This document shows, one piece after another, positions 4,523 through 49,911 of a stretch of DNA of 64,000 nucleotides. Numbering within the stretch: the first letter of the stretch is position 1; every line of letters starts with the position of its first letter. The position numbers and the translations under genes are program-made. The stretch is from a virus. Its lineage: Duplodnaviria > Heunggongvirae > Uroviricota > Caudoviricetes. Below the pieces are notes generated by a model. That model ran no database searches. It saw only the letters and a program-made list of their open reading frames with translations, and was not told the origin of the DNA. The stretch lies in IMG/VR virus record IMGVR_UViG_3300047483_000428. The stretch is one strand, 5' to 3'.

Positions 4523-5343
4523 TTGTTTCCATAAATTTTAGAAAGTGTAGATGGTCCTGCGACTCCATCCGCTGCCAACCCATTGTTGAGTTGAAATCTC
4601 ATCACTGCTTCTTTTGTTGCAGGACCAAAGTTTCCGTCTGCAACTAGTCCAAGTGCTTGCTGTAGCTTTACAACATCATTTCCAGTTGAACCAAGTTTTA
4701 GTGTTGTAGATTTTGATTCTGAAATTTTCCCACCCAAAACAGAAAGTGCTTTGTTGTAATATTTCATTCTGTCTTCAAGACCGTTGAACCCGCCATTGAT
4801 ACGTCTGGTAAGAGCTTTCATGTCTTGTGCATCTGCCAGTGCGTTCAGATTATTTTTTGCCCAAAACCAGCAAGCAGATTCAATCGCACCTTCTTTGGTT
4901 TCAAGATATGAGATTGCTTGGTCTATAGTCATGTTCACAGACTTGGCAAAAGCTGTGTAATTATCTTTTCCGGTGAGTTGTATCAACCCACGACCACGAT
5001 GTTTCCAGCCATCATTTGGCTCAGTGTTACCCATGCGACCAGCATATACTATGTTCGCAATCTTCTCTGGTTGACGAGCATATGCGTTTGCATCACGACC
5101 AGCATTGACAAAATACTTTGGAAATACTCTGTTCAAACCGTCTGCGGAATAGATCAAATTTTCTTGAACGACCGTGAATTGACCGCTCTCATGAGCACAC
5201 TGTGCGAGGAAAGCAGCAACTCTAAGTGGCGAAGTAATATCGTATTTTGGTAATATTTTAGATAGTGGGTCATACCAAGAACCAGCATCTTTATTGTTTG
5301 AAAGTATAGAACACAATTGTTCTTTTGTTATAGGCAATGACAT
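4519..5343 (-). CDS. endolysin: GH19 (chitinase-like) lysozyme domain plus C-terminal peptidoglycan-binding repeats
   Basis: GH19 catalytic signature AAFLAQCAHESG. The C-terminus has tandem PG_binding_1-like repeats (LQQALGLVADGNFGPATKEAV and NNGLAADGVAGPSTL). Confidence 0.8.
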   Translation of the reverse strand: MSLPITKEQLCSILSNNKDAGSWYDPLSKILPKYDITSPLRVAAFLAQCAHESGQFTVVQENLIYSADGLNRVFPKYFVNAGRDANAYARQPEKIANIVYAGRMGNTEPNDGWKHRGRGLIQLTGKDNYTAFAKSVNMTIDQAISYLETKEGAIESACWFWAKNNLNALADAQDMKALTRRINGGFNGLEDRMKYYNKALSVLGGKISESKSTTLKLGSTGNDVVKLQQALGLVADGNFGPATKEAVMRFQLNNGLAADGVAGPSTLSKIYGNK

Positions 5344-5389
5344 ATGCGCCTCCTATGCTTGATATGATATTTATCATATTAGCATCCGA

Positions 5390-5632
5390 TTATGCGTATG
5401 TCATTGCGAATACCGCAGCATCAAACTCGGTATCAAATCTTATCTTTCGTTCTCTATTATATTGAATGACTGTAGCGCCGTTGTCAAATAGCCAGTTTTC
5501 AAACTCTTGGCAGACTTTATGCGCTCTCCATTGTGAAGAATACAAGGCTCCACGATACTGAACCCCGTTGCGCTCCATCCACTTTTCCCATATGTCATCT
5601 AACACATGACTTTCAAGTAGTATCGCCATCAT
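5390..5632 (-). CDS. hypothetical protein
   Basis: 80 aa ORF; Trp-rich. Confidence 0.4.
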   Translation of the reverse strand: MMAILLESHVLDDIWEKWMERNGVQYRGALYSSQWRAHKVCQEFENWLFDNGATVIQYNRERKIRFDTEFDAAVFAMTYA

Positions 5633-6269
5633 ATACCCAAGGGTTTTCTACTTCGTTTATCAATACTGCTTCATAAATCTTTTTGATTTTTACATGTTGA
5701 AGCATCATCGCAGCATAAGAAACTTGCTCATAGGTTTCAAAATATATTGGTTCCGTAGAGTAAATAGAAATTGTATACGGCGTCCATTTTCCGTTGTCTT
5801 TGACATTTAGGGTATCCATGACATCAGTTACAGATTGTGTTGCTGCGTCTCTGTCATTATAGCTTTGGCAAGCAATCATCATCTTGTAACGATACATGCC
5901 ATGATAAAGACCTTTGCGAAGTTCTGCGTTAGTGTTCAATCCACCATACACAGAACTCAAATCTTTACGATAAGGAACAGTGGCTTCTTCTATGAACTGT
6001 GCATAGTTCTCGCACAAATACTGGAAAACATATTCGTCTTCCAAGAAATAAGAATGACACATTTCAACACGAGTTTTATAATCAACTGCCTCTTTTTTCA
6101 AATACCAATCTACATTCTTGAAAGCAGCACGAATGTCTTTGTATCGCTCATTATATTCGTCGCTATCATAACTGTTTCCATTATGATATGCATAATACGA
6201 TGGGCTTTGAAATTTTATGCGATAGGGATACTTATTAAAGTATAGCTTTATTGTTTCTGTTTTTTTCAT
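5613..6269 (-). CDS. hypothetical protein
   Basis: 218 aa ORF in an operon-like run. Confidence 0.5.
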   Translation of the reverse strand: MKKTETIKLYFNKYPYRIKFQSPSYYAYHNGNSYDSDEYNERYKDIRAAFKNVDWYLKKEAVDYKTRVEMCHSYFLEDEYVFQYLCENYAQFIEEATVPYRKDLSSVYGGLNTNAELRKGLYHGMYRYKMMIACQSYNDRDAATQSVTDVMDTLNVKDNGKWTPYTISIYSTEPIYFETYEQVSYAAMMLQHVKIKKIYEAVLINEVENPWVYDGDTT

Positions 6270-6626
6270 TTACCATACCGTTGCAAAAAATAAAGCATCA
6301 TCATTATCCTCAAACATAAAAAGTGGTCCCGCAACATAAAATGGAGATTTGCAGTTATCTTTGCACCATTCAATCATTTCTTTGCGAGTAGCAGAATTAG
6401 AATCCAAATAGACAGGAGTATATCCCATATTTTTGTATTCGTTGACTTCTTTGATTTGTTGTTTCAAATATTCAATCATCATTGACTGACTATTTGATTT
6501 ACCATTTGACCTGCCACTTGTAACAATAGACATTTCTCCTGCCTTCACTCCGTAGCTGTTGTTCATCAGCTTTTTTAGCACAATGTTTTTCAGCGCAATA
6601 CTTACGTCAGTTTTCATGGTCCCCAA
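6270..6626 (-). CDS. hypothetical protein
   Basis: 118 aa ORF. Confidence 0.5.
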   Translation of the reverse strand: MGTMKTDVSIALKNIVLKKLMNNSYGVKAGEMSIVTSGRSNGKSNSQSMMIEYLKQQIKEVNEYKNMGYTPVYLDSNSATRKEMIEWCKDNCKSPFYVAGPLFMFEDNDDALFFATVW

Positions 6627-6919
6627 CTCACAAAATCAACTTGTTCTGCCACAAATAGCATACGAGTGAACTCATCTTCATCAAACTCCGTGTTGTAGTC
6701 TCGTGACTTGATAACCCGAATAGGTTCATCATTCACTTGAAGCCAAACTTTATCTGCATTTTGCGCTCTGCCCATACTAGCATCGGAAAATGCAAAACCC
6801 TCATCATTGAATAGTCTTGGGTGTTTCACTGTCATTTGAGCAAGAGGCAAGCCAAAATGCTCGGCAACATGATGTGAATATCGATACCAGTATCTTACTG
6901 TTGCGTTCTCATAAATCAT
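6614..6919 (-). CDS. hypothetical protein
   Basis: 101 aa ORF; its start overlaps the upstream stop. Confidence 0.45.
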   Translation of the reverse strand: MIYENATVRYWYRYSHHVAEHFGLPLAQMTVKHPRLFNDEGFAFSDASMGRAQNADKVWLQVNDEPIRVIKSRDYNTEFDEDEFTRMLFVAEQVDFVSWGP

Positions 6920-6979
6920 AGTATACTCAGGTTGATGCTTTACTCTACATTTATATATGATTTCTAAATGGTTGTCAAT

Positions 6980-7005
6980 AAAAAAACGCCCCGAAGGGCG
7001 TTTTG
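6980..7005. terminator. bidirectional rho-independent terminator
   Basis: Hairpin CGCCCCGAAGGGCG with an A-run on one side and a T-run on the other; lies downstream of the minus-strand gene 7270..7833. Confidence 0.6.
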
Positions 7006-7269
7006 GTGAGAAGAAAAGTAAGTAACAGACACAGCAATCAACAACGGCCTATACGCCACTCAAGCAATACGCAATCTACAATCTGCAATCAAACCCTAAT
7101 ACCGACCATCAAAATGCAAGTCCGTTGGAATATCGGATAATAATGTCGGAACATGGCAGAAAAGAATGCAAAACCTTGCTTTCATATGAACGTTTTTGTA
7201 ACTTGACAGTTACGAGTCTGTCCTAATCTCTTTCCTTCTCCAAGAGGAACCCAAAGGTTCCTCTATTTC

Positions 7270-7833
7270 TTACAGCACAGATGCTTCCCGTAGAACGGCG
7301 AGTGCATCGTCCGATAGTTCAATCTGAACGCGCACGTTCAGTTCAAGGAGTTCGTCCTGAATAGCTTGCTTGCGAAGTTTCAGTTCAGCAAGGCGGTTTT
7401 TGATTTCCGAAAGTTCGGCTTCATCAAAAATAGATGTGCGAATTTCTTCGTCAAAGCGACCATAAGGGTCAGCCTCACGTCCCTTGATTTTGCCAATCTT
7501 ACCGATTAGCACATCATGGGGAACCGCTGGTGCGATTCCAGAAATACGCTTCATAAGCACAATCTCTTTTTCAAGACGTGCAACCGCAGCAAGGCGGGCA
7601 GAAATGCCATGTGCTTCGTTCTGTGAGCCAACAGCAACACGAATGTCGTAAAGAACATTCAGAAGTTGGTCACGAGTTGCAAGAGCAGCACCGAACTTGC
7701 TTTTTGCAAGGCTGATTTTGTCCGTAGGACGTTCAAACTCATTGATTGAAACTTCTGTAACCAATGGAAGTGCATTGATTGCATCGTTTACTGCACGTTG
7801 AATAGCGTCTGCTTTGCGTAGAGAGATTTTCAT
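7270..7833 (-). CDS. hypothetical coiled-coil protein
   Basis: The ORF track starts at 7869, but a GAGGAAA RBS precedes the internal ATG for MKISLRK at 7833. Confidence 0.5.
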   Translation of the reverse strand: MKISLRKADAIQRAVNDAINALPLVTEVSINEFERPTDKISLAKSKFGAALATRDQLLNVLYDIRVAVGSQNEAHGISARLAAVARLEKEIVLMKRISGIAPAVPHDVLIGKIGKIKGREADPYGRFDEEIRTSIFDEAELSEIKNRLAELKLRKQAIQDELLELNVRVQIELSDDALAVLREASVL

Positions 7834-7885
7834 TTCATTTCCTCGTTTGATTATTTTACTAATATACATGTAAGTGGTTGATTTG

Positions 7886-8074
7886 TCAAGGTTTTTTTTG
7901 AAGTTCAGCTATTTTTTCTTTTGCATCCAACACGTTGTGTAATGCGAAATCAAGAAGATAATCTCCTTGTAATGGGTTGCCATTGTTGTGTTCCAAATAC
8001 AAACGTAGATTTGATATGGCAGTCTCCACATAATCTTCTACTGTATTTTTTGTTGCTAATGCAAACAGACCCAT
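7886..8074 (-). CDS. hypothetical small protein
   Basis: 62 aa ORF. Confidence 0.35.
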   Translation of the reverse strand: MGLFALATKNTVEDYVETAISNLRLYLEHNNGNPLQGDYLLDFALHNVLDAKEKIAELQKKP

Positions 8075-8091
8075 ATTGTTTTCCTTGAAAA

Positions 8092-8168
8092 TGGTGCCCC
8101 CGGCAGGATTCGAACCCGCAACAGTCGGTTTCGAAGACCGATGCTCTATCCAGTTGAACTACAGAGGC
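8092..8168 (-). tRNA. tRNA-Arg (anticodon TCG)
   Basis: 77 nt cloverleaf: D-arm TAGTTCAACTGGATAGAGCA, anticodon arm TCGGT-CTTCGAA-ACCGA, T-arm GGGTTCGAATCC, 3' CCA encoded. Confidence 0.75.
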
Positions 8169-8174
8169 GTTATT

Positions 8175-8807
8175 TTAGTATAGACGATTTTCAACGTCAA
8201 AAGTGGTGATTGGACCTTTTTTGCCTTTCTCATAAACCCCAACACAAAGTCGGTTTGAGTAGAATGCTCCACAATCCAAGTTACAACGATTTATCGCAAA
8301 AATAGGACCATCGCCATGCGGGGTGTGACCATGGTTCAAATACATAGTCGGATGGTCAAATGATGCATACCTACCACGTCTGCGCCAAATCATTGCGTGT
8401 TCAAGTTGCTGGCGTTCCTCAAGATGTTCATCCCAGTCGGCATGAACAAATATATTTTCATCTTCGATGTGATAGATTTTTAGTTTGTTGATCCAACGCA
8501 ATACTTCGTCGTCAATAAGTCCACCAAAACTATCCAGAACCTTTGGGTCATATAACTGATTAGATGAGCACCAATCATACATCAACATATCTTCATGGTT
8601 GCCTTTGAGGCAAATGTATTCCCAACCAGCAGGAGGAACATCCATTAGATAGCGGACAACACCACCACTGTCTGGGCCACGGTCAACATAATCACCAAGG
8701 AAAATAATCTTTCCAGAATCTTGGCGTGAGAATATTTCCTTTAGTGCAAGATCAAGTAAATCTTTTCTTCCATGTATATCTGGTATTGCGTAATATATTT
8801 CACTCAT
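8175..8807 (-). CDS. serine/threonine protein phosphatase (calcineurin-like metallophosphoesterase, lambda-PPase-like)
   Basis: Motifs DIHG, GDYVDRG, GNHE and a His-rich C-terminal region. Confidence 0.8.
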   Translation of the reverse strand: MSEIYYAIPDIHGRKDLLDLALKEIFSRQDSGKIIFLGDYVDRGPDSGGVVRYLMDVPPAGWEYICLKGNHEDMLMYDWCSSNQLYDPKVLDSFGGLIDDEVLRWINKLKIYHIEDENIFVHADWDEHLEERQQLEHAMIWRRRGRYASFDHPTMYLNHGHTPHGDGPIFAINRCNLDCGAFYSNRLCVGVYEKGKKGPITTFDVENRLY

Positions 8808-8826
8808 AATGAATCTTTCTAAATAT

Positions 8827-8983
8827 TGGTCAAGTGGGAAGGACTTGAACCTTCAACTGAATCGCAGCTTACACATACTCTTGCAAATGGGTTCGTCTCG
8901 AGCCTACTACCATCCACTCAATGTGCCTCACTGAAACTCCACGGCCCCTAATGCCGCTGCGTCTACCATTTCGCCACCACTCG
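8827..8983 (-). tRNA. interrupted tRNA-Leu(TAG)-like gene (about 157 nt; canonical 5' half and 3' T-arm/acceptor separated by an approx. 75 nt insert)
   Basis: 5' part CGAGTGG-TG-GCG-AAATGGTAGA-CGC-A-GCGGC-ATTAGGG-GCCGT carries a Leu-type D-arm and anticodon loop. 3' part is GAAGGTTCAAGTCCTTC-CCACTTG-A-CCA. The insert contains a partial duplicate of the 5' half. Confidence 0.35.
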
Positions 8984-9002
8984 TAAGACGATTTTGAGAA
9001 AG

Positions 9003-9165
9003 TCAGCCCTTGTCAAAATCGTCTTGGGATTTATTACCCTTACGCAACTCAACCTTATCATCACGGCGTTGCGCTTTTTTGCTCTTACCATGAGCACCGC
9101 TCTTTTTCGTAATCAAATGTTGCACGAAGGGATTACGAGCCTTCGGTAGTTTCTTTCGTTTCATT
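9003..9165 (-). CDS. hypothetical small basic protein (53 aa, below cutoff)
   Basis: Hand translation gives MKRKKLPKARNPFVQHLITKKSGAHGKSKKAQRRDDKVELRKGNKSQDDFDKG. An AAGGAGA RBS sits 7 nt upstream. Confidence 0.3.
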
Positions 9166-9291
9166 TGTAATCTCCTTGATTTCTACCTTTGCTGTTGATT
9201 TATCAACTTCACTTGCATGGACAAATGCCATTGCATCTTCTTTTTTTGTGGTGATTGCCACTATTTCATCGTCAACAGTCACCACAAACAT
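9126..9291 (-). CDS. hypothetical small protein (about 52 aa)
   Basis: Hand translation gives MFVVTVDDEIVAITTKKEDAMAFVHASEVDKSTAKVEIKEITNETKETTEGS. A GGAG RBS precedes it, and it overlaps the next gene out of frame. Confidence 0.25.
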
Positions 9292-9296
9292 TATTC

Positions 9297-9446
9297 TGTT
9301 TTCTCCGTTTCATAAGGAATGAACTCAACCGTCCATTTACCATCAGACCAAGTTTTCAGATGTTTCATCCAATACTTGAGTTTGCCATACTTCTTCTGAT
9401 GAAGACGAGTAAGGTAGGAAAGATTTCCACTATGGATATTGCTCAT
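9297..9446 (-). CDS. hypothetical small protein (about 49 aa)
   Basis: Hand translation gives MSNIHSGNLSYLTRLHQKKYGKLKYWMKHLKTWSDGKWTVEFIPYETEKTE, with a GGAG RBS. Confidence 0.3.
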
Positions 9447-9616
9447 TCTTTGCTCCATTCGTAAACATCATCAAAGTCAAGACCTTGGGATTTCAGGTCG
9501 CTGGCGATTTTCTTAACTTCTTCAAGGTCACCGTCAAAACCAAGGTCTTCACGAATTGCTTCTTCGGTTTCACCGTGGAAGAACCAGCAGACAGCTTCTT
9601 TGAAAATCTTGGTCAT
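9443..9616 (-). CDS. hypothetical acidic protein
   Basis: Start moved to the internal MTKIFKEA, which has a GAGGGAGA RBS and lies downstream of a promoter-motif copy at 9627..9660. Confidence 0.4.
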   Translation of the reverse strand: MTKIFKEAVCWFFHGETEEAIREDLGFDGDLEEVKKIASDLKSQGLDFDDVYEWSKE

Positions 9617-9626
9617 TTCGTCTCTC

Positions 9627-9660
9627 CCTCTTACTTGTATAGGTATACAGTGATTCGTGG
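9627..9660 (-). promoter_or_regulatory. promoter-like motif copy (minus strand: TTGACT, N17 containing CGAATCAC, TATA-rich -10)
   Basis: Plus strand reads tgtataggtatacagtgattcgtggaaagagtcaa; a member of the family repeated at least 20 times in this window. Confidence 0.5.
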
Positions 9661-9666
9661 AAAGAG

Positions 9667-9837
9667 TCAATAGTCTTTTACTATTTTCAGAGAAGTTTCT
9701 GCTTGAATAGCATCTGCTTCATCAATCGCTTCTTGTTCGGATAAACCAGAAAGTTCATCCCAGTTATCAGACCCAACCACCTTCACCGAAAAGGTGTCAT
9801 CTTCCGAGTCTTGATAGATTGAAATATAAGATTTCAT
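9667..9837 (-). CDS. hypothetical acidic protein
   Basis: Start tentatively at the internal MKSYISIYQD; weak RBS. Confidence 0.3.
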   Translation of the reverse strand: MKSYISIYQDSEDDTFSVKVVGSDNWDELSGLSEQEAIDEADAIQAETSLKIVKDY

Positions 9838-9841
9838 TTCA

Positions 9842-10108
9842 TCACACGCGGGCAAAAGAACGGCCAGAAAAGGCTTCAAGAATACCGTAATACCAATTTT
9901 CATTTGTATCACGAAGAATCGTAAGAGGGGCTTTGTCATTCGCCATTTCAGAAAAGTAACTCTCAACCGTATGATTGGCAATCAATTCTTTCAAGAACTT
10001 TGCTTTAGTGAACGGGCTACCACGGTGTTTGAAACGAGCAACAAACTTGCCCTCGTAACGAACATATTCACCAGAAGTTTCGAACTTAGCTTTTACAAAC
10101 TTCGTCAT
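9842..10108 (-). CDS. hypothetical protein
   Basis: Start moved to the internal MTKFVKAKF, which has an AAGGAGA RBS, directly downstream of promoter motif 10131..10161. Confidence 0.45.
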   Translation of the reverse strand: MTKFVKAKFETSGEYVRYEGKFVARFKHRGSPFTKAKFLKELIANHTVESYFSEMANDKAPLTILRDTNENWYYGILEAFSGRSFARV

Positions 10109-10130
10109 TTCGTATCTCCTTCTCACAGTA

Positions 10131-10161
10131 TGTTTATATACTGATTCGTGAAAGAAGTCAA
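10131..10161 (-). promoter_or_regulatory. promoter-like motif copy
   Basis: Plus strand reads tgtttatatactgattcgtgaaagaagtcaa. Confidence 0.5.
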
Positions 10162-10177
10162 CTACATTGTTGGAAAA

Positions 10178-10252
10178 TGGTGCTGCGAAAGAGGATTGAA
10201 CTCTTGACCTCTTCATTACCAATGAAGTGCTCTACCACTGAGCTACCGCAGC
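10178..10252 (-). tRNA. tRNA-Thr (anticodon GGT)
   Basis: GCTGCGG-TA-GCTC-AGTGGTA-GAGC-A-CTTCA-TTGGTAA-TGAAG-...-AAGAG-TTCAATC-CTCTT-TCGCAGC-A-CCA. Confidence 0.7.
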
Positions 10253-10262
10253 ATAAAAGTAT

Positions 10263-10904
10263 TTATCGTCTTACTACCCAACCACGAAAGTTATAGCTTT
10301 GCCAAACTTGGTCTGCATGACCAAGATATTTCAATTCTTCGGTGATTTCGGCATTAGTCAAACAAAACATCTTACCAATCAAACTGTAATCTTTATCCAA
10401 AATCTCAGTATCGGTGAAGTGTTTTCGTTTTTGGTTGTAGTGTTCTTTTGTCATGATAGAGTTTAGTTTGGCGGTATCACTGAATACCTTTTCGGCAAGT
10501 AGCAGTGTTGCACCGTTGTCTATCAACTCTTTCAACTTTTTTACAACTTGTCGGCGTTTGTATTTACCAAGAAACTGTAACGTGAACATAGATACGATCA
10601 GGTCAACGGATGTAAAGTTTTCCAATGCAGTGATTACATCTTGGTTGAGAAACACAAAATTTTTATCAGACGCCATTTCAACTACGTCAATACCTACGTA
10701 GAAGCCCTCTGTTGAGGCAGAGAGGTCATTGAGAAACTTACCAGTGCTACATCCAATGTCAACGCACTGACCCTCTGGTGGCATGTATTCAAGGGCTATG
10801 GCTCTAAAAACGTCATATAGTCCTTGGTAGTTTGGAATAGAAAGGTTGATGTGATTGTCGAAATCTTCAACCTTCTGAAAGTCAAACTTGTTGTGCATCA
10901 TCAA
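10263..10904 (-). CDS. class I SAM-dependent methyltransferase
   Basis: Motif I CVDIGCSTGKF and motif II VGIDVVE. Confidence 0.6.
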   Translation of the reverse strand: MMMHNKFDFQKVEDFDNHINLSIPNYQGLYDVFRAIALEYMPPEGQCVDIGCSTGKFLNDLSASTEGFYVGIDVVEMASDKNFVFLNQDVITALENFTSVDLIVSMFTLQFLGKYKRRQVVKKLKELIDNGATLLLAEKVFSDTAKLNSIMTKEHYNQKRKHFTDTEILDKDYSLIGKMFCLTNAEITEELKYLGHADQVWQSYNFRGWVVRR

Positions 10905-11775
10905 ATTCCCGTATCAACTCACCAACATGCTGAATGACATTTACCGTCATTCCATTATACACGAACTTTTGAGTATCGGTTAGGTCGCAACCATCAAACC
11001 AATCAATTGGGAACGACTGTAGAAGTAGTCGTTCAGTTGGAGTAACCCTGCGTATTCTATTTTCAGTGATTACCAAATCTGTAAACTGTTTATAGTCTCG
11101 TTTACAAAGAGTTGATGCTAATCCTGATTCGGTAAATTCTGCATTGCTTTGACGAGTGATGTAGGTAAAGGCTTCTTGCCCTCTTTCTGGCTTCGCCTCA
11201 AAACTCCACTCAAAGCCTTGTGAGATAGATTCCACTTTTCTTCTGTGTTCGTCAGTATCACGTTCTCTAAACTTGAAGATTTCGGTTCCAAGGGGGATTC
11301 CGTCACGGACGGCCACAATGTAAACTCTACGTCTTCGTTGGGGAACTCCAAAAAACTTGGAGTCGTAGATTGTCCAAGTCGCATCGTACCCGATTTGGGC
11401 AAGGTCGTGTAGGACGACTTCAATTCCTCTGCCAAGGATTGCAAAGACGTTTTCAATGATCGCATATTTTGGTTTCCCTTCATCTATAAGTCGTAGATAC
11501 TCTTTCCATAATCCAGAACGTTCACCAGTAATGCCAGCACCTTTTCCACCTACAGAAATGTCTTGGCAAGGGAACCCCCCGCACATAACATCATACTCTC
11601 CACCTTTCAGTGAGAGAGTTTTTACGTTGTCAAAAATAACAGCGTTAGGAAAATTCTTTTTTAGAACCCGTGTGGCTGGTTCTTCGATTTCACACATGGC
11701 AGTTATATCAAACCCTGCGCGTTGAAGCCCAAGTTCAAAGCCACCGATTCCACTGAATAGTCCTAATACTTTCAT
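10882..11775 (-). CDS. DNA (cytosine-5)-methyltransferase
   Basis: Motif I LFSGIGG and motif IV GGFPCQDIS (catalytic PC), with ENV-like motifs downstream. Confidence 0.8.
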   Translation of the reverse strand: MKVLGLFSGIGGFELGLQRAGFDITAMCEIEEPATRVLKKNFPNAVIFDNVKTLSLKGGEYDVMCGGFPCQDISVGGKGAGITGERSGLWKEYLRLIDEGKPKYAIIENVFAILGRGIEVVLHDLAQIGYDATWTIYDSKFFGVPQRRRRVYIVAVRDGIPLGTEIFKFRERDTDEHRRKVESISQGFEWSFEAKPERGQEAFTYITRQSNAEFTESGLASTLCKRDYKQFTDLVITENRIRRVTPTERLLLQSFPIDWFDGCDLTDTQKFVYNGMTVNVIQHVGELIREFDDAQQV

Positions 11776-11818
11776 TTTTACCTCATTTTATACATCATAT
11801 CAAAAAAACTCAAATAAG

Positions 11819-12010
11819 TCAAGCCACTAAAAAGTTGGCATCTTCCAAATCTTCTCGTAGGACAAAATCATCAGGAAGTTCAACAGTCTTTCCTTCCATC
11901 ACGCTTTCAATAAGTCTTTTACTTTCAAGTAAACTTTTTCCAGTGTGCTTTCTAACGGCATTTATAGCAGAATATGAGTTTGCTCTATGTTTGCATCCTA
12001 TAATAAGCAT
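11819..12010 (-). CDS. small protein resembling ribosomal protein L7/L12 C-terminal domain
   Basis: SAINAVRKHTGKSLLESKRLIESV...GKTVELPDD parallels the bL12 CTD ([22 protein letters not shown]). Confidence 0.4.
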   Translation of the reverse strand: MLIIGCKHRANSYSAINAVRKHTGKSLLESKRLIESVMEGKTVELPDDFVLREDLEDANFLVA

Positions 12011-12023
12011 TTCCTTTCTCCTT

Positions 12024-12099
12024 TAGAATAATATGGTCCCCAAGGACGGAATCGAACCGCCGACACCATGCTCTTCAGGCAAGTGCTCTACCAACTGAG
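12024..12099 (-). tRNA. tRNA-Phe (anticodon GAA)
   Basis: CCCCAAG-TA-GCTC-AGTTGGTA-GAGC-A-CTTGC-CTGAAGA-GCATG-GTGTC-GGCGG-TTCGATT-CCGTC-CTTGGGG-A-CCA. Has a U28:U42 mismatch and G37. Confidence 0.6.
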
Positions 12100-12355
12100 C
12101 TACTTGGGGACAACCAGTTTTGAGACATGGCGGTCAACCGCTCTTTAACGACAACGGTGGTCGGAACACTTATACATCAGGTTCCTATGACATAACTTTA
12201 CATCGTTTAGCTTACAACGACTGGGAATACATGCTAACCCGCTGCTCCAAAATATTACTATCAGTGACACGAAAGGAGTTGAACCTTCATCTTTACTTTT
12301 TTGGAGTAACGCCTTATCCCTAGTTTTGGCCACGTGTATGTAGTAAAATAATCTA

Positions 12356-12430
12356 TGGTGCGGTCTAATGGATTTGAACCATTGACCTCTGTCGAGTCAG
12401 GACAGCGTTCTACCCCTGAACTAAGGCCGC
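12356..12430 (-). tRNA. tRNA-Val (anticodon GAC), tentative
   Basis: GCGGCCT-TA-GTTC-AGGGGTA-GAAC-G-CTGTC-CTGACTC-GACAG-...-TTCAAAT-...-CCA; position 37 is a pyrimidine. Confidence 0.5.
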
Positions 12431-13152
12431 ATATCTATTTTCAAATTTTCTAACATGGTTCCGTTGAAATCAGCAAACTCAACCTTTTTTGTTGACAAGT
12501 ATTTTTCTGCGACTAATTTAAGATGGTCATAGTTATCTACTATTGTCTTTTTACTTGGTGCTTTTAATTTAGATATATCAAATGGTGTTAGATTTTCTAT
12601 TGGTGTATTACACAGTTCCATATTGGCAAAATCAACAACAGGATCAAAAGTAAGATTTTCCATATATACGATTTCATTATACTGAATATTAAAATCGTTT
12701 CTGCATATATATCCCAAATCCCATAACTGATTATCAACATACCATATAATCATATCATCTGTTATTTCAACTTTATCGAAGTTATGATATTCAACAAATT
12801 CTTTTTTTATATTTGCGATAGCAAGACTCAATGCACTTTGAAAGACATCTTTTCTTAATATGACAATCGTATAATATTTTTTTTGGTAATATCGATCTAT
12901 GACCCCATAGTCTTTCAAATCCACAATTTGAGTAATATGCGTTTTCATTACTACGGGGTCATGTCGTTCAATGAAATTCAGCCGACTATTAAAAAGATTT
13001 GCTATTTCAGACGAAGATGTTATTTCTGGTGGTATTAGAAATGGTTCATTTACACAAACATAATTTTTGTTCAGACTTGTCATGTGATGACAAATCATTC
13101 GTTGCATATATGTCGAACCATTTCTTGGATTACTTATTATTTGAATATTCAT
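12421..13152 (-). CDS. sulfotransferase-like protein (paralog A of 61575..62330)
   Basis: N-terminal ISNPRNGSTY resembles a PAPS 5'-phosphosulfate-binding loop. The shared block RKDVFQSALSLAIA aligns with paralog B's RKNVFDTVMSLALA. Confidence 0.4.
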   Translation of the reverse strand: MNIQIISNPRNGSTYMQRMICHHMTSLNKNYVCVNEPFLIPPEITSSSEIANLFNSRLNFIERHDPVVMKTHITQIVDLKDYGVIDRYYQKKYYTIVILRKDVFQSALSLAIANIKKEFVEYHNFDKVEITDDMIIWYVDNQLWDLGYICRNDFNIQYNEIVYMENLTFDPVVDFANMELCNTPIENLTPFDISKLKAPSKKTIVDNYDHLKLVAEKYLSTKKVEFADFNGTMLENLKIDMRP

Positions 13153-13374
13153 TGTGTTATTCCTTTGAATAATATTTATTCAATAGTGTGCTGCTACGCC
13201 AAAGGAAAACAGAGCCAAAAATATCATAACGAGCGATTATGTTTCTGTTACTGTCCGCATTTTCCCGCCCAGCCTCTCCCTATACCACTTGTTTTCACAG
13301 CCCGATATAGTCTCTTTGCGTTCACGGTGCTTCGTTCCACTCTTTAAAGGATGTGCTGCCTCTAAGCCAACCTC

Positions 13375-14091
13375 CTACTGAACTTTCAAGTAATCATATT
13401 CTCCGCTTAGTAACTTTTCAACAAACGCAGGAACCATTTCTGTTGCAACCCCATCCATACTTTCTGTAAACATATACTTGTTTTCAGAAGGATGTAGATT
13501 GATTTCAACAGTATGTGCTCTTGCTTTTTTCTTTGCAGTCTTCACAAATCCAGCCGCAGGATAAACTGTTCCAGATGTTCCAATCGCAACAAAGATGTCA
13601 CAACGTCTAAGTGCATCATCAATCACTTCCATGTAGTATGGAAATTCACCGAACCAAACGATGTTTGGGCGTAATGCAGGATGATAGCAATCATCACAAA
13701 TATCGTGTGTTTGCATCACTTCATTTGCAGTTGTAATGTCTCCACATTTTCTACAAATAGATTCGTGCAAACTTCCATGCATATGCAATACGTTTTTTGA
13801 CCCTGCTTTTTCATGTAAGTCATCTACGTTTTGAGTAATCAAAGTAACATCAAAATTTGGATTATGCTGTAATGCTGCTAAAGCATAATGCGCTTTGTTT
13901 GGTCTTGCATCGGCAACTTCTTTACGTCTATGGTTATAGAAGTCTAATACAAGTTTTGGATTTTTATAGAAACCTTCTGGGGTTGCTACATCAGTTACAT
14001 CATATTCATTCCAACGTCCATCGGTATCACGAAATGTTTTGATTCCGCTTTCTGCGGAAATTCCCGCCCCTGTCAATATGCATATTTTCAT
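13375..14091 (-). CDS. Sir2-family NAD-dependent protein deacetylase
   Basis: GAGISAESGIKTFR, QNVDDLH, a conserved HG and a CxxC zinc pair. Confidence 0.8.
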   Translation of the reverse strand: MKICILTGAGISAESGIKTFRDTDGRWNEYDVTDVATPEGFYKNPKLVLDFYNHRRKEVADARPNKAHYALAALQHNPNFDVTLITQNVDDLHEKAGSKNVLHMHGSLHESICRKCGDITTANEVMQTHDICDDCYHPALRPNIVWFGEFPYYMEVIDDALRRCDIFVAIGTSGTVYPAAGFVKTAKKKARAHTVEINLHPSENKYMFTESMDGVATEMVPAFVEKLLSGEYDYLKVQ

Positions 14092-14109
14092 TTCGTGTCC
14101 TTATAAGTT

Positions 14110-14185
14110 TGGTGGTGCTGGTAGGAATCGAACCTACGACAACCTAGTTATGAGCCAGGCACTCTACCGACTGAGTTACAGCACC
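14110..14185 (-). tRNA. tRNA with CAT anticodon (Met/fMet/Ile2-type), copy 1
   Basis: GGTGCTG-TA-ACTC-AGTCGGTA-GAGT-G-CCTGG-CTCATAA-CTAGG-TTGTC-GTAGG-TTCGATT-CCTAC-CAGCACC-A-CCA. Confidence 0.75.
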
Positions 14186-14205
14186 GAAAATTCTAGCCAG
14201 AAGCA

Positions 14206-14278
14206 AAACTGTTACGGGATTCGAACCCGCCTCTCCCCCGACTCCGCAGGAGTATCCTTTCCTATAGACGAAACAGTC
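14206..14278 (-). tRNA. degenerate tRNA-like element (possible pseudogene)
   Basis: Acceptor GACTGTT/AACAGTT and T-arm GGCGGG-TTCGAAT-CCCGT are present, but no canonical anticodon arm and no CCA. Confidence 0.25.
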
Positions 14279-16195: not shown

Positions 16196-16314
16196 TGGTG
16201 CGTATGGCTGGACTTGAACCAGCATGTCACCATGACTCATTCAACCACCGTTGAACTTATGGATTTGAACCACCTTACGTCCGTCGACGTGCGTCTACCA
16301 TTTCGCCACATACG
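16196..16314 (-). tRNA. interrupted tRNA-like gene (about 119 nt) with Leu-type 5' half and approx. 50 nt insert before T-arm
   Basis: 5' GCGTATG-TG-GCG-AAATGGTAGA-CGC-A has a D-arm identical to element 8827..8983. 3' GCTGG-TTCAAGT-CCAGC-CATACGC-A-CCA. The acceptor halves pair perfectly; the middle carries two small hairpins instead of an anticodon arm. Confidence 0.3.
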
Positions 16315-16322
16315 CAAATATT

Positions 16323-16590: not shown

Positions 16591-17010
16591 AAGAACACAG
16601 TGACCCTAACCGTTCTAACCGCTGAACTACATCGCAGTTTGAAGCCGCAATGGAGGGATTTGAACCCCCGACCTGTGTAGTATGTGTATATTTTCGTAAT
16701 GAGTGCTCTATCTGGATTCGAACCCTCGGACAGCATCAGCCCTACACCTACCGATCTGCTGACCGGAAAATAGGAGATCATTACATAGCCCGCACAACCA
16801 CGAATCGAACGTGTTTTCTTGACAACTGTCTATATAGACCAACTACCAGGTAGCTACAACTGGCTGTTGTGCGATTGTTGATGAGGTTTACCATGAGTCA
16901 TTTTAACTCATCAACAATATTTCTGTTTTCAACTGTAACAACTGTTGGACTCGAACCAACCCCACCTTGTCCTGAAACTACTCGTAGTTATACTACTTTC
17001 GCCCAAGGTT
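16591..17010 (-). other. block of degenerate/non-canonical tRNA-like elements (at least 4 T-arm-like and several D-arm/acceptor-like segments)
   Basis: T-loop-like GGGTTCGAATCC, GGGGGTTCAAATCCC, CACGTTCGATTCGTG and TTGGTTCGAGTCCAA occur with fitting acceptor pairs (e.g. GCACAAC/GTTGTGC), but anticodon arms could not be folded by eye. This block may hold the tRNAs missing from the hand-parsed set (Ala, Asn, Asp, Gln, Glu, Gly, Pro). Confidence 0.25.
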
Positions 17011-17121
17011 TATGACACCCTTGCACCGTATTGTTACATGTGAAAACAGAAATTATTTCATTCTGTTTTTTCTAAATTGTCAAAGAGCAGTGAAGCATCG
17101 CTTCGTTTTCTTACATTGTCT

Positions 17122-17149
17122 TTATATACTGATTCGCTTATAAAGTCAA
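17122..17149 (-). promoter_or_regulatory. promoter-like motif copy at the head of the tRNA array
   Basis: Plus strand reads tttatatactgattcgcttataaagtcaa, oriented to transcribe into the tRNA block at lower coordinates. Confidence 0.45.
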
Positions 17150-17154
17150 CATCT

Positions 17155-17196
17155 TTTTTCAATAAAAAACCCTCCGAAGATTTTCATCTTGGAGGG
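17155..17196 (-). terminator. rho-independent terminator downstream of the LamG-like gene
   Basis: Minus-strand hairpin CCCTCCAAGATGAAAATCTTCGGAGGG followed by TTTTTTATTG. Confidence 0.6.
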
Positions 17197-19747: not shown

Positions 19748-19837
19748 TGGCGGAAAGTGTGGGATTCGAACCCACGAGAGGTTTCACCCCCTGCTCGTTT
19801 AGTAGACGAGTGCCATCGACCGCTCGGCCAACTTTCC
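19748..19837 (-). tRNA. type II tRNA with anticodon loop CTACTAA (reads as ACT; atypical)
   Basis: GGAAAGT-TG-GCC-GAGCGGTCGAT-GGC-A-CTCGT-CTACTAA-ACGAG plus a long variable arm, then GTGGG-TTCGAAT-CCCAC-ACTTTCC-G-CCA. Ser/Leu-type architecture. Confidence 0.5.
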
Positions 19838-21586: not shown

Positions 21587-21683
21587 TGGTGTTGGAGAGG
21601 GATTTGAACCCTGCTTTGAACAATTTGTTTCATCCGCCTGCCCGAATATATGAAACAACATCAGCACACCATGCCAGTCCAAC
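21587..21683 (-). tRNA. tRNA-like element with canonical T-arm/acceptor but a long central hairpin instead of D/anticodon arms
   Basis: 3' AGGG-TTCAAAT-CCCT-CTCCAAC-A-CCA and 5' GTTGGAC pair; the centre is a 9 bp hairpin TTGTTTCAT...ATGAAACAA. Confidence 0.25.
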
Positions 21684-21893
21684 ATAATAAATCGTATGCA
21701 TCTTTATCCCTTCTACCCAGTCCACTGTAGGTGCGCCGTAGCTGGCCACACAGCTTCAACCTAGTCCAGTCTTCAACACTCACGTGCTACGATACACGGC
21801 ATTACTCTGCTTCGGGCTTTTTTTGCGGTTGCTACATCGCTTCTCATCATATGGGTTACCGCCCATACTATCTGTTGCTACACAGAACGTCTA

Positions 21894-22220: not shown

Positions 22221-22847
22221 TTATGCTACTGACGCCTCTTTCACAACTTTTGCAACTACTTTATACAAACCAGGATTTACAACTAACGCTTTTGGCATCA
22301 ACTCATGACGAATAAAGTTACGCATATACTTTGTATCGCTGTTACTTTTATCTTCAATCCATTCAATGCTTTTTCGTTCACACCAATCAACAAACTCATA
22401 CTTACGGTTCATACGAAATGGACGAATAACATTCATGTTGCGATATGGAATAACTTTACCAAAACCGTTCAATGACGACCAAATCCAAGTTTCAGTGCAA
22501 TCATCCAAGTGATGACAAGTTACAACTGGCACATCCATACTATAGAAGATTTTGTATCGCTCGTTTCTCCAATGTTCTTCCTGAGACGTATTTTTGGGAG
22601 GGTTTTCATCAGAAATACATGTCTTGATGAGACGTTCACCAAATACAGAATCAAGAAACTTTTCTGCTTCTCTACTTGTTTCAGTTCCGTGATTTACAAA
22701 TAGGGGACGGACTGTATGATTGCGACTTAGGAAGTCAACAACTGCCATACTATCAACGCCGCCACTACAAGCGACAATCACTTCACGTGGGATTTTACCT
22801 TGGATTTTGATCATATTCGAAACAGTCTTTTCCTGTTTGGTGTTCAA
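22221..22847 (-). CDS. PP-loop ATP pyrophosphatase (TilS-like tRNA(Ile)-lysidine synthetase or QueC-like)
   Basis: SGGVDS PP-loop in VIVACSGGVDSMAVVDFL followed by FVNHG. Context of four CAT-anticodon tRNAs favours TilS-like. Confidence 0.6.
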   Translation of the reverse strand: MNTKQEKTVSNMIKIQGKIPREVIVACSGGVDSMAVVDFLSRNHTVRPLFVNHGTETSREAEKFLDSVFGERLIKTCISDENPPKNTSQEEHWRNERYKIFYSMDVPVVTCHHLDDCTETWIWSSLNGFGKVIPYRNMNVIRPFRMNRKYEFVDWCERKSIEWIEDKSNSDTKYMRNFIRHELMPKALVVNPGLYKVVAKVVKEASVA

Positions 22848-23255: not shown

Positions 23256-23332
23256 TGGTGCCCCCGGTGGGATTCGAACCCACACTGTAGAGATTTTAAG
23301 TCTCCTGCCTCCTGCCTTTGGGCTACGAGGGC
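23256..23332 (-). tRNA. type I tRNA with anticodon TAA (Leu-type anticodon on a short-variable-arm body)
   Basis: GCCCTCG-TA-GCC-...-GGC-A-GGAGA-CTTAAAA-TCTCT-ACAGT-GTGGG-TTCGAAT-CCCAC-CGGGGGC-A-CCA. Confidence 0.55.
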
Positions 23333-35216: not shown

Positions 35217-35481
35217 TGTTTGTCAGCCTTTCACTAATGAGAGAGAAAACTTCAAATAAGTCATCGTCAATATCATTCAAATGATTGATGTGTGCTTGAA
35301 ATAACATGCTCAGTAAAATCATATTCTCTGCTGTTTGCACGTCATACGCATTGTATTTGTATTTCAAAAGTATGGTGATAATGGATTTCATGAGTTCAAG
35401 AGACTCTACTTCGTCTTGCGGACGATAGGTAGAGTCTTCTTTTTTGGACCGATATTCATCCAAACTTACTATGTTAGTCAT
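35209..35481 (-). CDS. hypothetical protein
   Basis: 90 aa. Confidence 0.4.
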   Translation of the reverse strand: MTNIVSLDEYRSKKEDSTYRPQDEVESLELMKSIITILLKYKYNAYDVQTAENMILLSMLFQAHINHLNDIDDDLFEVFSLISERLTNNE

Positions 35482-36017
35482 CGGATATTCAAACCCAATG
35501 TGGCGATAGCATCTTGGACGGATTTTGCTTGAAATTTCGCATCCTGTAGTGGGTCATGCTTCAAAAACGTGTATGCTTTCCTTGGGTCGTCTGGCAAAAT
35601 ACTAAACAGTGTGGCACTGTCTTTGATTGCCCAGTATGGCCAAGGAACGGGAGAATCGTATTGCTTGCACATGTTTTGTATAATTCCAACGTCCATCAAA
35701 ATACGTTGTGACCAGATGGCATCACAGCCAACATACCATTTTTTCAAATGGCGAAGCATTTCATGTGGGGAAACACGCCCTTCTGGTGAGAACGCCATTT
35801 CAATTGCGTCTTTGTCTTGTGTGGACCACCAATCCAACGTTTCTGTGCTTACCGTTCTACCAGTGCTTTCCTGATAGTCAATATCCACCCGATAGAAAAA
35901 CTCATCAAATGGATTTTCTTTACTGTTTGGATTAAATTTTACCCCACCGATGGATAAAACTTGTGCTGTTGGAGACACATCAAGCGTCTCCAAATCAATC
36001 ATTGCATGTATTGTCAT
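35478..36017 (-). CDS. DEDDh-family 3'-5' exonuclease (DexA/oligoribonuclease-like)
   Basis: Exo I motif IDLETLD near the N-terminus and a distal HD..D..Q block (KHDPLQDA); 179 aa. Confidence 0.6.
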   Translation of the reverse strand: MTIHAMIDLETLDVSPTAQVLSIGGVKFNPNSKENPFDEFFYRVDIDYQESTGRTVSTETLDWWSTQDKDAIEMAFSPEGRVSPHEMLRHLKKWYVGCDAIWSQRILMDVGIIQNMCKQYDSPVPWPYWAIKDSATLFSILPDDPRKAYTFLKHDPLQDAKFQAKSVQDAIATLGLNIR

Positions 36018-48204: not shown

Positions 48205-48552
48205 TCAAGAACCTTTTTTCTTATCCCAATAATCTTTTGGCATATTTGTCCATTGCGTTGACCAGTAGAACACAATGAAATACAGGTTCAGTTGCGCGTG
48301 TGGGCAGTCATACCAAAACTTGTGAAGTCCAAAGTTTTCAAAACCCCAAATCTTACGCATCCAAGAGTCGTCTTTGAACTCTCGCATTGCTTGACGCATT
48401 TCTTTGTCAACCAGTCCAACCTTGAAATAGCACCCATACCAATCGGACCCAAGAGTCTTTTCGGTTTGATACCACTCAACGCCGAGTTCTCCCTTCCAAC
48501 AAAGTTTGAACTTCCACGGGTATTGTTTTACTTTTTCCATATCAGTCCCCAC
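48205..48552 (-). CDS. hypothetical Trp-rich protein
   Basis: 115 aa. Confidence 0.4.
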   Translation of the reverse strand: MGTDMEKVKQYPWKFKLCWKGELGVEWYQTEKTLGSDWYGCYFKVGLVDKEMRQAMREFKDDSWMRKIWGFENFGLHKFWYDCPHAQLNLYFIVFYWSTQWTNMPKDYWDKKKGS

Positions 48553-49552
48553 CTTTCAGAAGGAACTGATTGCTGATTGTCTTGAAGCTGAAACTTGGGT
48601 CTTCGTTGCACTTCCACACAAGACCTTCACGAACCTTATGGGCGATACTTGGACCTTCGGCAATAGCAAGACCTTGTTCAACCGAAGCAGGGGATTTCCA
48701 GTCATTACCAAGAACAGGAGCATGGTCAAAGTATTTTGCATTGCAGACCATGCGCCGAGTCTTTGGTTCTAGGTATTCATGCTTCTGAATGTCGAAGACG
48801 TCGAACACGAAGAACTTGTGTTCAGTGAACCCTTCGCGGTTTCCTTGAATACCTGGGCCCATGACTTCACCTTGAACAGCGTAACCGTTCGGAATGCGAT
48901 CACCGATCTTGAGAGCCATTGCAACAAGGGTGTTGTCTCGGTTCTCGTCATTGATCTTGAGTTCAAGGTTCCTACTGCAAACGCGAACTTCGCCTTCCCA
49001 ACGGAAGATAGTGCAACTGGTTCCGTCCAGTTTCATAGTTACTTCGTAAGTAACATCACCCTTATCCTGAATCTCTTGGAAACAGTTTTGGATACGTTCT
49101 TGGTCAGTTTTAGGAATCAGGCTGGTAGGAAACAGACCGCGAACTTGACCAGCAAGTTGAGCAGGGATTTCTGGTTCCCACTTTTGAATACCAAGGATTT
49201 CGGTTACATCAACTCCTTCTTCTGGAAGAGTAAAGAACAGTTTTCCTTTCACACCTTCCGCATCAAGTTTCAAAAGAAGACCTTGTGAAACTTGCCCACG
49301 CAGTTTGACAGTGCGAAGCCGTTCACCTTTCACCCCATTGTATTCACGAGGTTCTTGTCCTTTTGACAGGAACGCAGCAAGTTCAGTTGGCACCCAAGAG
49401 TCGATTTCAAGGTAAACGGCAAGGTCACCAACTTGAAACTCGTCTTTCTTGACCACAACTTTCCAGCCATCAACTGTGGCCACAACAATAGCATCAGCAC
49501 CTTCAATGGGCTGAATGTCGGCAATCCGACGAATAGAGGCTAGTTTACGCAT
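48542..49552 (-). CDS. ATP-dependent RNA ligase (nucleotidyltransferase superfamily)
   Basis: Motif I KxDG as KLDGTSCTIF. Start placed at MRKLASIRR (ATGA-coupled to the upstream ORF). Confidence 0.5.
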   Translation of the reverse strand: MRKLASIRRIADIQPIEGADAIVVATVDGWKVVVKKDEFQVGDLAVYLEIDSWVPTELAAFLSKGQEPREYNGVKGERLRTVKLRGQVSQGLLLKLDAEGVKGKLFFTLPEEGVDVTEILGIQKWEPEIPAQLAGQVRGLFPTSLIPKTDQERIQNCFQEIQDKGDVTYEVTMKLDGTSCTIFRWEGEVRVCSRNLELKINDENRDNTLVAMALKIGDRIPNGYAVQGEVMGPGIQGNREGFTEHKFFVFDVFDIQKHEYLEPKTRRMVCNAKYFDHAPVLGNDWKSPASVEQGLAIAEGPSIAHKVREGLVWKCNEDPSFSFKTISNQFLLKGGD

Positions 49553-49911
49553 TATTTTTTCTCCCGAATAAAGGCAGTGAGTGGAGTTCCGTATCCACAT
49601 TGTAAGTCCGAATGAAGATTTCCACCGTTGATGGAGTCTGTCAGATAGTCCATTTCAGTATAGCCATACCGATCAATGCCATTGCCAATCCCAACGTATT
49701 CACCGTCAGCATCAAAGGCAGAGTATCCGTAACTGTCAAAACCTTCACTGTCGTAGTCGCCAAACATGGTTTTTTCATCATATTCGATTCCATCTTCATA
49801 GACTTCTTGATTCCATTCTGCGGGGACTTCGCCATAGCAGTTGTATTTGAACATTTCCCATCCGCTTTCATTGGCGTGAGGGCAGAGAGGTGAATATTTT
49901 CCAGTGCTCAT
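49552..49911 (-). CDS. hypothetical acidic protein
   Basis: 119 aa. Confidence 0.4.
   Translation of the reverse strand: MSTGKYSPLCPHANESGWEMFKYNCYGEVPAEWNQEVYEDGIEYDEKTMFGDYDSEGFDSYGYSAFDADGEYVGIGNGIDRYGYTEMDYLTDSINGGNLHSDLQCGYGTPLTAFIREKK

Follow-up and report, generated by a model that had tools for sequence, protein, structure and literature searches.

The window analysed here, a 64,000-nt stretch of Caudoviricetes DNA (IMG/VR record IMGVR_UViG_3300047483_000428), carries two transfer RNA (tRNA)-Leu-like RNA genes, E1 (157 nt; 8983..8827, minus strand) and E2 (120 nt; 16315..16196, minus strand), which are recognised by their Rfam tRNA scores, their folds and their orthologs in related phages. 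We propose, with a probability of about 0.55, that both are functional, non-canonical RNA genes derived from tRNA-Leu, acting as tRNA mimics rather than as ordinary decoders, introns or pseudogenes. A preliminary description, made from the sequence alone, had noticed both elements (with the end of E2 placed at 16314, one base short of the real end at 16315) and offered four explanations for the extra sequence within them, namely introns, permuted tRNA genes, decayed duplicates and tRNA-derived structured RNAs; only the last of these survives the evidence presented below.

Both elements keep the upper half of a tRNA-Leu. As listed in the preliminary description, a paired acceptor stem (7 bp), the same Leu-type D-arm, a T-arm and CCA are present in each, and this reading of the sequence is confirmed by the Rfam tRNA model, which matches E1 end to end at 36.0 bits and E2 at 40.3 bits (gathering score 29). 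The acceptor strands of E1, CGAGUGG (8983-8977) and CCACUUG (8837-8831), form seven pairs, one of them G-U, and are followed by U8 and the Leu-type D-arm GCG-AAAUGGUAGA-CGC (8974-8959). The next hairpin, GCGGC-AUUAGGG-GCCGU (8957-8941), was rightly described as a readable anticodon arm with loop AUUAGGG and anticodon UAG, and in the window it is canonical, with U33 and G37. Beyond it lies a giant variable arm, an irregular hairpin or rod of 81 nt (8939-8859), which AGUU separates from the T-arm GAAGG-UUCAAGU-CCUUC (8854-8838); A73 is at 8830 and CCA at 8829-8827. Alignment to the tRNA model places 83 inserted nucleotides between model positions 44 and 45, within the variable region, and minimum-free-energy folding predicts a cloverleaf in which the anticodon hairpin looks canonical and the insert forms the 81-nt rod. 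The insert is therefore 81-83 nt, close to the roughly 75 nt estimated earlier.

The arm of E1 contains four helices in the window fold (5, 4, 6 and 8 bp), with invariant internal loops (AGUGAGG / GUAAG; GCAAGAG) and a conserved apical part, UGGUAGUAGG..CG..ACGA..CC. Its base is a continuous covarying helix with G44 and AGUU on either side. Searched against Rfam, the arm gave only CRISPR-DR16 at chance level (12.9 bits versus a gathering score of 35, E = 5), and inspection by eye revealed no hammerhead or kink-turn signatures. The insert had been thought to hold a partial duplicate of the 5′ half of the gene. Indeed, GAGUGG and UGGUAG recur within it and the motif is retained in the orthologs, but an alternative fold through the internal GAGUGG copy was rejected, as the pairing cannot form in the related contig L006. 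Directly beside E1, a 13-bp hairpin, AAGACGAUUUUGA ... UCAAAAUCGUCUU (8985..9025, minus strand), ends 1 nt short of where E1 begins; it lacks a U-tract and was not called in a terminator scan. On the other side, E1 sits 19 nt upstream of a metallophosphoesterase gene.

E2 has the same frame around a different middle. Its acceptor stem GCGUAUG/CAUACGC (16315-16309 and 16206-16200) is perfectly paired over 7 bp, its D-arm (16306-16291) is identical to that of E1, and its T-arm GCUGG-UUCAAGU-CCAGC (16223-16207) is followed by A73 at 16199 and CCA at 16198-16196. The anticodon and variable region between the two arms is replaced by what is predicted to be four hairpins: hairpin 1, ACGUC-GACG-GACGU, with a 5-bp stem and the 4-nt loop GACG (16290-16277); hairpin 2, GUGG-UUCAAAU-CCAU, which is T-arm-like (16273-16259); hairpin 3 (16256-16239); and hairpin 4 (16236-16226). 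When E2 is aligned to the tRNA model, 60 nt replace 15 anticodon-arm positions, a net gain of about 45 nt against the earlier estimate of about 50. There is no anticodon loop anywhere in E2. Hairpin 2 was considered as an anticodon arm (CAA) and rejected; its L006 variant, UUCGAAU, is a change at R57 of a T-loop and not a Leu anticodon. The internal T-arm of E2, UGGUUCAAAUCCAU, is identical to the one in the array's tRNA-Val. E2 lies between two tRNAs, with no open reading frame (ORF) adjoining.

A 20-mer common to E1 and E2, GTGGCGAAATGGTAGACGCA, occurs exactly twice in the window, where none is expected (100 shuffles). The two RNAs have the T-loop UUCAAGU in common, both have A73 and encoded CCA, and the nucleotides of the tRNA elbow and tertiary core are intact in both (U8, A14, A15-U48, G18G19, U54-U55-C56). 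In a genome scan, ordinary tRNA-Leu genes of alphaproteobacteria were found to have this very D-arm. At 157 and 120 nt, they exceed the limits of a tRNA-Leu in length (~70-95 nt) and in the variable region (at most ~21 nt), and ARAGORN calls neither. A canonical anticodon arm, with a 5-bp stem, a 7-nt loop, U33 and a purine at 37, is present in the window E1 only.

Several known RNA classes do not fit these features. Both elements match tRNA-model positions 1-71 with the 5′ half before the 3′ half, the normal order, which excludes permutation. At E ≤ 10, the tRNA model was the only Rfam match at either locus, with no ribozyme, riboswitch, intron or transfer-messenger RNA (tmRNA) model, Intron_gpI included, and with no match to RF02553 (YrlA). 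The inserts, of 60-83 nt and in the variable or anticodon region, lack the size (above ~200 nt), the location in the anticodon loop at 34/35 and the P1-P9 core of group I introns, and bulge-helix-bulge geometry, with a 4-bp helix between two 3-nt bulges, is not predicted at the base of the E1 arm. ARAGORN called no tmRNA in the window, and pair 3-70 is A-U in E1 and G-C in E2, not G3-U70. Antisense targets of the E1 and E2 middles were sought in the window, and only 11-mers at chance level were found.

Both elements are conserved in related phages. Both loci were compared by megablast and blastn with 50,697 phage records, where the only hits, a tRNA-Met fragment and a chance match of 33 nt, were uninformative, and that reference collection holds no close phage; a protein scan of IMG/VR with the metallophosphoesterase also gave no match. 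Two metagenomes (SRR29492106 and JGI 3300051215) hold contigs identical to the window. Syntenic relatives were found through the proteins adjoining the elements, namely L006 (a 92.6-kb contig), L099 and L097 (a 347-kb contig, whose size indicates a clade of jumbo phages). E1 has orthologs at the syntenic position in all three and E2 in L006 and L097. An uninterrupted tRNA was looked for at the orthologous positions and was not seen; the relatives have the same interrupted architecture instead. Furthermore, E1 has the same immediate neighbours in all four phages, the metallophosphoesterase gene downstream and the 13-bp hairpin before its 5′ end. The whole hairpin could be read in L006 and L099, where it is unchanged; in L097 the 3′ arm alone was read, and it is identical too.

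The four E1 sequences support a consensus fold of 44 pairs, in which 96.6% of cells are paired. In eight pairs both nucleotides have changed: the acceptor stem and the base of the long arm contain three such pairs each, and the arm's middle helix has two. Column shuffles yield 2.5 ± 1.1 such compensatory pairs, with none of 500 reaching eight, and slid structures yield 0-2. The insert is the best-conserved part of the RNA, while the anticodon-like loop varies in length: it reads AUUAGGG in the window and AUGAG, AGGAG and ACGAGAG in the relatives (7, 5, 5 and 7 nt, respectively), with A32, A35 and G36 alone constant in all four. The 5-nt loops belong to L006 and L099; the L097 loop, of 7 nt, has C33 and a 4-bp stem. 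L006 and L099 differ by a compensated G-C/A-U swap in the arm, which argues for selection on the E1 arm independent of a canonical anticodon loop. The most divergent E1, that of L097 (14957-15112), has A at D-loop position 18 and G at T-loop position 55, so that neither nucleotide of the G18-U55 elbow contact is kept. E2 is 96% identical across three phages, where the surrounding DNA outside the tRNA genes is ~67-86% identical, and its hairpin 1 shows one compensated base-pair gain and one double, compensatory change with the loop GACG kept.

Relatives of E1 and E2 form a larger family in metagenomes. We scanned for a Leu D-arm followed, after 62-92 nt, by a T-loop, a distance that is ~40 nt in normal tRNA-Leu. 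The scan returned 84 loci, 72 of which have at least six of seven acceptor pairs, mostly all seven, at the register set by tRNA geometry; the chance of seven consecutive pairs is ~0.001. After a few bacterial partial tandem tRNA-Leu duplications were set aside, 56 distinct sequences of 109-139 nt remained. U8 and U48 are present in all 56 and A73 in 46, none of them imposed by the pattern, and the acceptor stem covaries, with 4-6 pair types at every position. CCA is encoded in only three of the 56. An anticodon-like hairpin is found in only about four members, and ~50 have no anticodon arm. The middles cannot be aligned, and k-mer enrichment among 52 distinct middles was not above shuffles; their degree of structure exceeds that of shuffles (mean z −1.08, p = 7e-10). 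The acceptor stem AGUCAGG is common to 20 distinct sequences in which the T-arm is nearly the same and the middles are entirely different, and in this group no conserved anticodon-arm exons flank the middles, which argues against the middles being introns.

Rfam searches of 12 family loci at the gathering threshold matched the tRNA model only. The contexts of the family are phage-like where checked, with genes for thymidylate synthase, exonuclease, primase and RNA ligases and with tRNA arrays; the family also extends to large viral contigs (L115), to several metagenome-assembled genomes (MAGs) and to the assemblies of two cultured bacteria, Komagataeibacter nataicola LMG 1536 (L106, where CCA is encoded) and Flavobacterium facile T-12 (L102). 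One member, at 5108-5209 of L028 (region 3892-7370; also in L051 and L056), lies between Rnl2-like and Rnl1-like RNA ligase genes, in one lineage only. Pattern scans of IMG/VR found no match with a 60-90 nt gap after the D-arm and one true relative with a 92-122 nt gap, the viral contig L003, which is of the AGUCAGG type; a second hit in the latter scan, L004, proved false, being two tRNAs side by side. No match in IMG/VR was obtained with the conserved core of the E1 arm, and a looser pattern added one more member (L115) and a Leu tRNA with an anticodon-loop insert (L118). We found no published description of this RNA family, the nearest report being that of the tRNA introns of Lak megaphages (PMC6784885).

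One variable-arm module is also portable. Contig L087 (8251-8568) has two elongated tRNA genes ~50 nt apart, one with a Leu-type D-arm body and the other with a class I Asn(GUU)-type body, and both carry homologous variable-arm inserts of ~65 nt. The same ~65-nt module sits on a third body in L086, where the "anticodon" hairpin ends in a tetraloop. At least in that lineage, the insert is a unit able to sit on different tRNA bodies. In one of the L087 genes, the Leu-type D-arm and A73 occur together with an anticodon loop that reads UUG (Gln).

From these features we infer how E1 and E2 are transcribed, processed and charged, and that they act off the ribosome. They would be transcribed together with the tRNA array, and their upper half would recruit tRNA maturation, in which RNase P would cut at the 5′ end, the 3′ end would be trimmed and the CCA would be repaired by the CCA-adding enzyme that the phage encodes (26723..28090, minus strand), to give stable RNAs of 157 and 120 nt. 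Leucine identity in E. coli resides in A73, A15-U48, G18G19, A20a and D/T-loop contacts; leucylation requires neither the anticodon nor the long variable arm, and variants without both arms are still charged (PMC9976931). All of these bacterial identity elements are present in E1 and E2. Both RNAs would probably be charged with leucine, since recognition by bacterial leucyl-tRNA synthetase (LeuRS) is independent of the anticodon and the variable arm, and the known identity elements are all retained. The bulky, lineage-specific lower half would then block or alter decoding on the ribosome, and is likely to be the functional cargo, presumably a protein- or RNA-binding module or a decoy surface, for which the tRNA body would serve as a natural scaffold.

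Several observations weigh against this interpretation. The family was gathered with an exact Leu D-arm pattern, and its apparent Leu specificity is therefore partly built in; non-Leu examples exist, such as the Asn-type body L087b. When the proteins encoded within 3 kb of the 72 family loci were clustered, no broadly common family emerged, the largest covering seven loci. A18 and G55 of the L097 E1 replace the G18-U55 contact that the E. coli LeuRS requires. Finally, the UAG loop of the window E1 is fully canonical, A35-G36 is kept in all four orthologs and CUN codons are heavily used, and E1 may still decode CUN codons in this phage.

The last point leads to the strongest rival, in which E1 is a working tRNA-Leu(UAG) that reads CUN on the ribosome, an extreme class II tRNA whose 81-nt arm would serve an additional purpose, for example to bind a protein or to shield the tRNA from a defence that cleaves tRNAs. 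We consider this unlikely, while granting it a real share of the probability. The 5-bp stem, 7-nt loop, U33, UAG and G37 of the window E1 speak for it, and the L097 loop, also of 7 nt, reads GAG at the anticodon. CUN makes up 570 of the 818 leucine codons of the phage (70%), and the only other Leu readers in the array are Leu(CAA) and Leu(UAA), which leaves no other reader of CUN. The L087 tRNAs, furthermore, combine canonical-looking anticodon loops with a comparable variable-arm module. Yet the loop has only 5 nt in L006 and L099, the L097 hairpin has a 4-bp stem and C33, and the arm remains under selection in the lineage with 5-nt loops. To our knowledge, no tRNA with an arm as long as that of E1 functions on the ribosome. 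The explanation is also inapplicable to E2.

The elements might instead act only in cis, as tRNA-like punctuation at which RNase P and RNase Z cuts separate and stabilise the flanking mRNAs, with no role for the free RNA. The invariable position of E1 just before the same gene in all four phages, the conserved hairpin abutting its 5′ end and the close abutment of tRNAs and ORFs across the array fit this proposal; we nevertheless judge it improbable, as ordinary array tRNAs would suffice for the task, and it leaves unexplained an 81-nt arm with invariant loops, the encoded A73-CCA and the position of E2 between tRNAs. Somewhat more doubtful still is excision of the inserts and rejoining of the halves, for instance by a nuclease and the phage RNA ligase, into ordinary short tRNAs. 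E2 and ~50 family members have no anticodon arm to restore, the AGUCAGG members are near-identical in the upper half with no common sequence beside the middle, and the E1 insert is better conserved than the loop that it would interrupt. Together with the lack of a group I match at E ≤ 10 and with an arm base that is a continuous helix and not a bulge-helix-bulge, this makes introns, as put forward in the preliminary description, an unlikely account, even though E1 without its arm would be a type I tRNA-Leu(UAG), short-variable-loop Leu tRNAs occur in phages (in L004 and at 23256..23332 of the window), the window encodes an RNA ligase and RNA ligase genes flank one family member on both sides, and the Lak phages offer a precedent (PMC6784885). 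Decayed duplicates or recombination scars without function, finally, are hardly credible. A mosaic origin is suggested by the tRNA-Val T-arm inside E2, and true partial tandem tRNA-Leu duplications occur in bacteria (L030, L032, L105, L110), but E1 and E2 are conserved at or above the tRNA level amid flanking DNA of 67-86% identity, with perfect acceptor stems and intact tertiary-pair nucleotides. Together, the synteny of both elements, the eight compensatory pairs of E1 and the conservation of E2, including the compensated base-pair insertion in its hairpin 1, rule against decay, which we regard as already largely refuted.

The reading of E1 and E2 as tRNA mimics can be placed among known systems. 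Like class II tRNA-Leu (RF00005), they have a 7-bp acceptor stem, U8, a D-arm with A14, A15, G18G19 and A20a, U48, a T-arm, A73 and CCA; they differ in that the variable arm of class II tRNA-Leu is ~13-21 nt long compared with 81 nt in E1, that E2 has no anticodon arm and that the loop length of E1 is not conserved. The T4 species 1 and 2 RNAs (rnaC, rnaD), which are small stable RNAs of ~120-140 nt, agree with them in size and are likewise encoded in a phage tRNA cluster, co-oriented with tRNAs, and rnaC ends in a T-arm and an acceptor-like helix. However, rnaC scores 17.5 bits against the tRNA-type model and has no recognisable D-arm, E1 and E2 being far more tRNA-like and specifically Leu-type; by reading of the sequences rather than by alignment, neither rnaC nor rnaD resembles E1 or E2. 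tmRNA and the staphylococcal cell-wall tRNA-Gly species are aminoacylated without being ordinary decoders and have their identity elements outside the anticodon; what sets them apart is the Ala identity (G3-U70), the pseudoknots and the tag reading frame of tmRNA and the normal size of the staphylococcal tRNA-Gly species. The closest working analogy is man-made: in the tRNA scaffold engineered by Ponchon and Dardel in 2007, a foreign structured RNA reportedly replaces the anticodon arm, and the chimera is said to be processed and protected like a tRNA. No description of a natural phage use of this design was found in the literature.

Among natural RNAs, the closest analogies are the T4 species 1 and 2 RNAs and the YrlA-type tRNA mimics. 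YrlA, a bacterial Y RNA, is non-decoding, has a tRNA-like elbow (D and T arms with a Levitt pair), is a substrate of tRNA enzymes, and nuclease protection has been put forward as a role for it (Chen et al., 2014; PMC4201824). The elbow is what it has in common with E1 and E2. In YrlA, however, the tRNA-like parts are permuted, with the two ends paired in the stem that binds Ro60 and the "acceptor" a closed hairpin without a free A73-CCA, whereas E1 and E2 have the normal 5′/3′ topology and an end that could be charged. The Lak megaphage tRNAs with "enigmatic introns", in which inserts were predicted with eukaryotic tRNAscan settings in otherwise complete tRNAs (Devoto et al., 2019; PMC6784885), are also tRNA genes of huge phages, overlong for bacterial tRNA finders and with conserved insertions; here, by contrast, the variable and anticodon region is the site of the insert or is replaced by it, and an anticodon is lacking in most family members.

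The 23 tRNA genes that ARAGORN calls in the window lie within 8092-23529 on the minus strand, interspersed with co-oriented ORFs and tightly abutting them along the whole array, and E1 and E2 have the orientation of the array and of the surrounding genes. Promoter and terminator scans of 7800-17600 gave background levels. Peptidoglycan-binding and cell-wall hydrolase genes and bacterial-type encoded CCA mark the context as that of a bacterial phage, and among cellular sequences the Sir2 gene of the array matches alphaproteobacteria best. Besides the CCA-adding enzyme, the window encodes a TilS-like PP-loop enzyme next to a tRNA(CAU) (22221..22814), an Rv2179c-like 3′-5′ exoribonuclease (35478..36017) and an RNA ligase with a PHA02142 OB domain (48542..49600), all on the minus strand, and an FtsJ-like methyltransferase.

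Other unusual tRNA-like elements lie in the same array. A 97-nt element at 21588..21684 (minus strand), called tRNA-Tyr(ata) by ARAGORN, has an acceptor stem and a T-arm and, instead of an anticodon arm, a long interrupted hairpin of 12 bp; it is 99% identical to L097:3276-3372 despite far more diverged genomes, on which ground we count it as a third conserved tRNA-like RNA. Directly upstream of tRNA-Tyr, a YrlA-like element (RF02553; 16591..16690, minus strand) has the order T-arm, acceptor-like closed hairpin and D-arm, all closed by a basal stem. Its match to RF02553 is weak (30.4 bits, gathering score 69). L097 (26.7 bits) and L006 retain the element, which shows two compensatory pairs, and the window has no Ro60 gene. 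Two matches of normal length to the tRNA model (12267..12337 and 14206..14278, minus strand; 37.4 and 31 bits) have no ARAGORN call and apparently correspond to the "tRNA-???" calls of L097 at 7502-7580 and 9814-9886. An ORF-poor stretch of ~520 nt (16700..17160, minus strand) heads the dense tRNA block and contains several T-arm-like hairpins (e.g., GUUGG-UUCGAGU-CCAAC at ~16962-16945), and it may hold more tRNA-like RNAs; upstream of it are a terminator-like hairpin (~17200-17160) and a promoter-like site, TTGACT-17-TATATA (~17150-17120).

Some tRNAs proper are also atypical. The tRNA-Ser at 19748..19837 (minus strand) has the unusual anticodon ACU (A34), conserved in L097 (5174-5261). Two phage Leu tRNAs are short (76-77 nt) with a type I variable loop: the window Leu(UAA) (23256..23332, minus strand), whose D-arm is not Leu-type, and the Leu(CAG) of L004:65-140, whose D-arm is that of E1 and E2. 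A hairpin of ~45 nt interrupts the anticodon loop (CUU / insert / AAAA) of tRNA-Leu(UAA)-like genes in L107:5943-6053, an Armatimonadota MAG, and in L118, a 171-kb viral contig (minus strand, ~2609-2721). The insert site is the group I intron position of cyanobacterial tRNA-Leu, and the insert is far too small for such an intron.

The tRNA arrays of phages are usually seen as codon-usage patches or as substitutes for tRNAs destroyed by defences. The array of this clade also holds at least four conserved tRNA-shaped RNAs that are probably non-decoding, two of which belong to the wider family. Such RNAs appear to form a sizeable family, undescribed so far, and standard tRNA finders miss their genes, which would lead censuses of phages to undercount them or to label them as pseudogenes or intron-containing tRNAs. 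The family retains exactly the part of tRNA-Leu that is recognised by LeuRS and the processing enzymes and leaves the rest free to vary, which predicts RNAs that are charged and non-decoding. We tentatively suggest, at odds well short of even, that phages encode widespread non-decoding tRNA scaffolds chargeable by LeuRS, with a Leu-type upper half and a swappable, hypervariable cargo below; the Leu-type half would have been kept because LeuRS ignores the anticodon, and it would confer processing, stability and perhaps a leucyl ester. If this is true, E1, E2 and their 56 metagenomic relatives would be the first natural instance of the tRNA-scaffold design, and such RNAs could be decoys or inhibitors of tRNA-directed host defences or enzymes, or donors of leucine off the ribosome.

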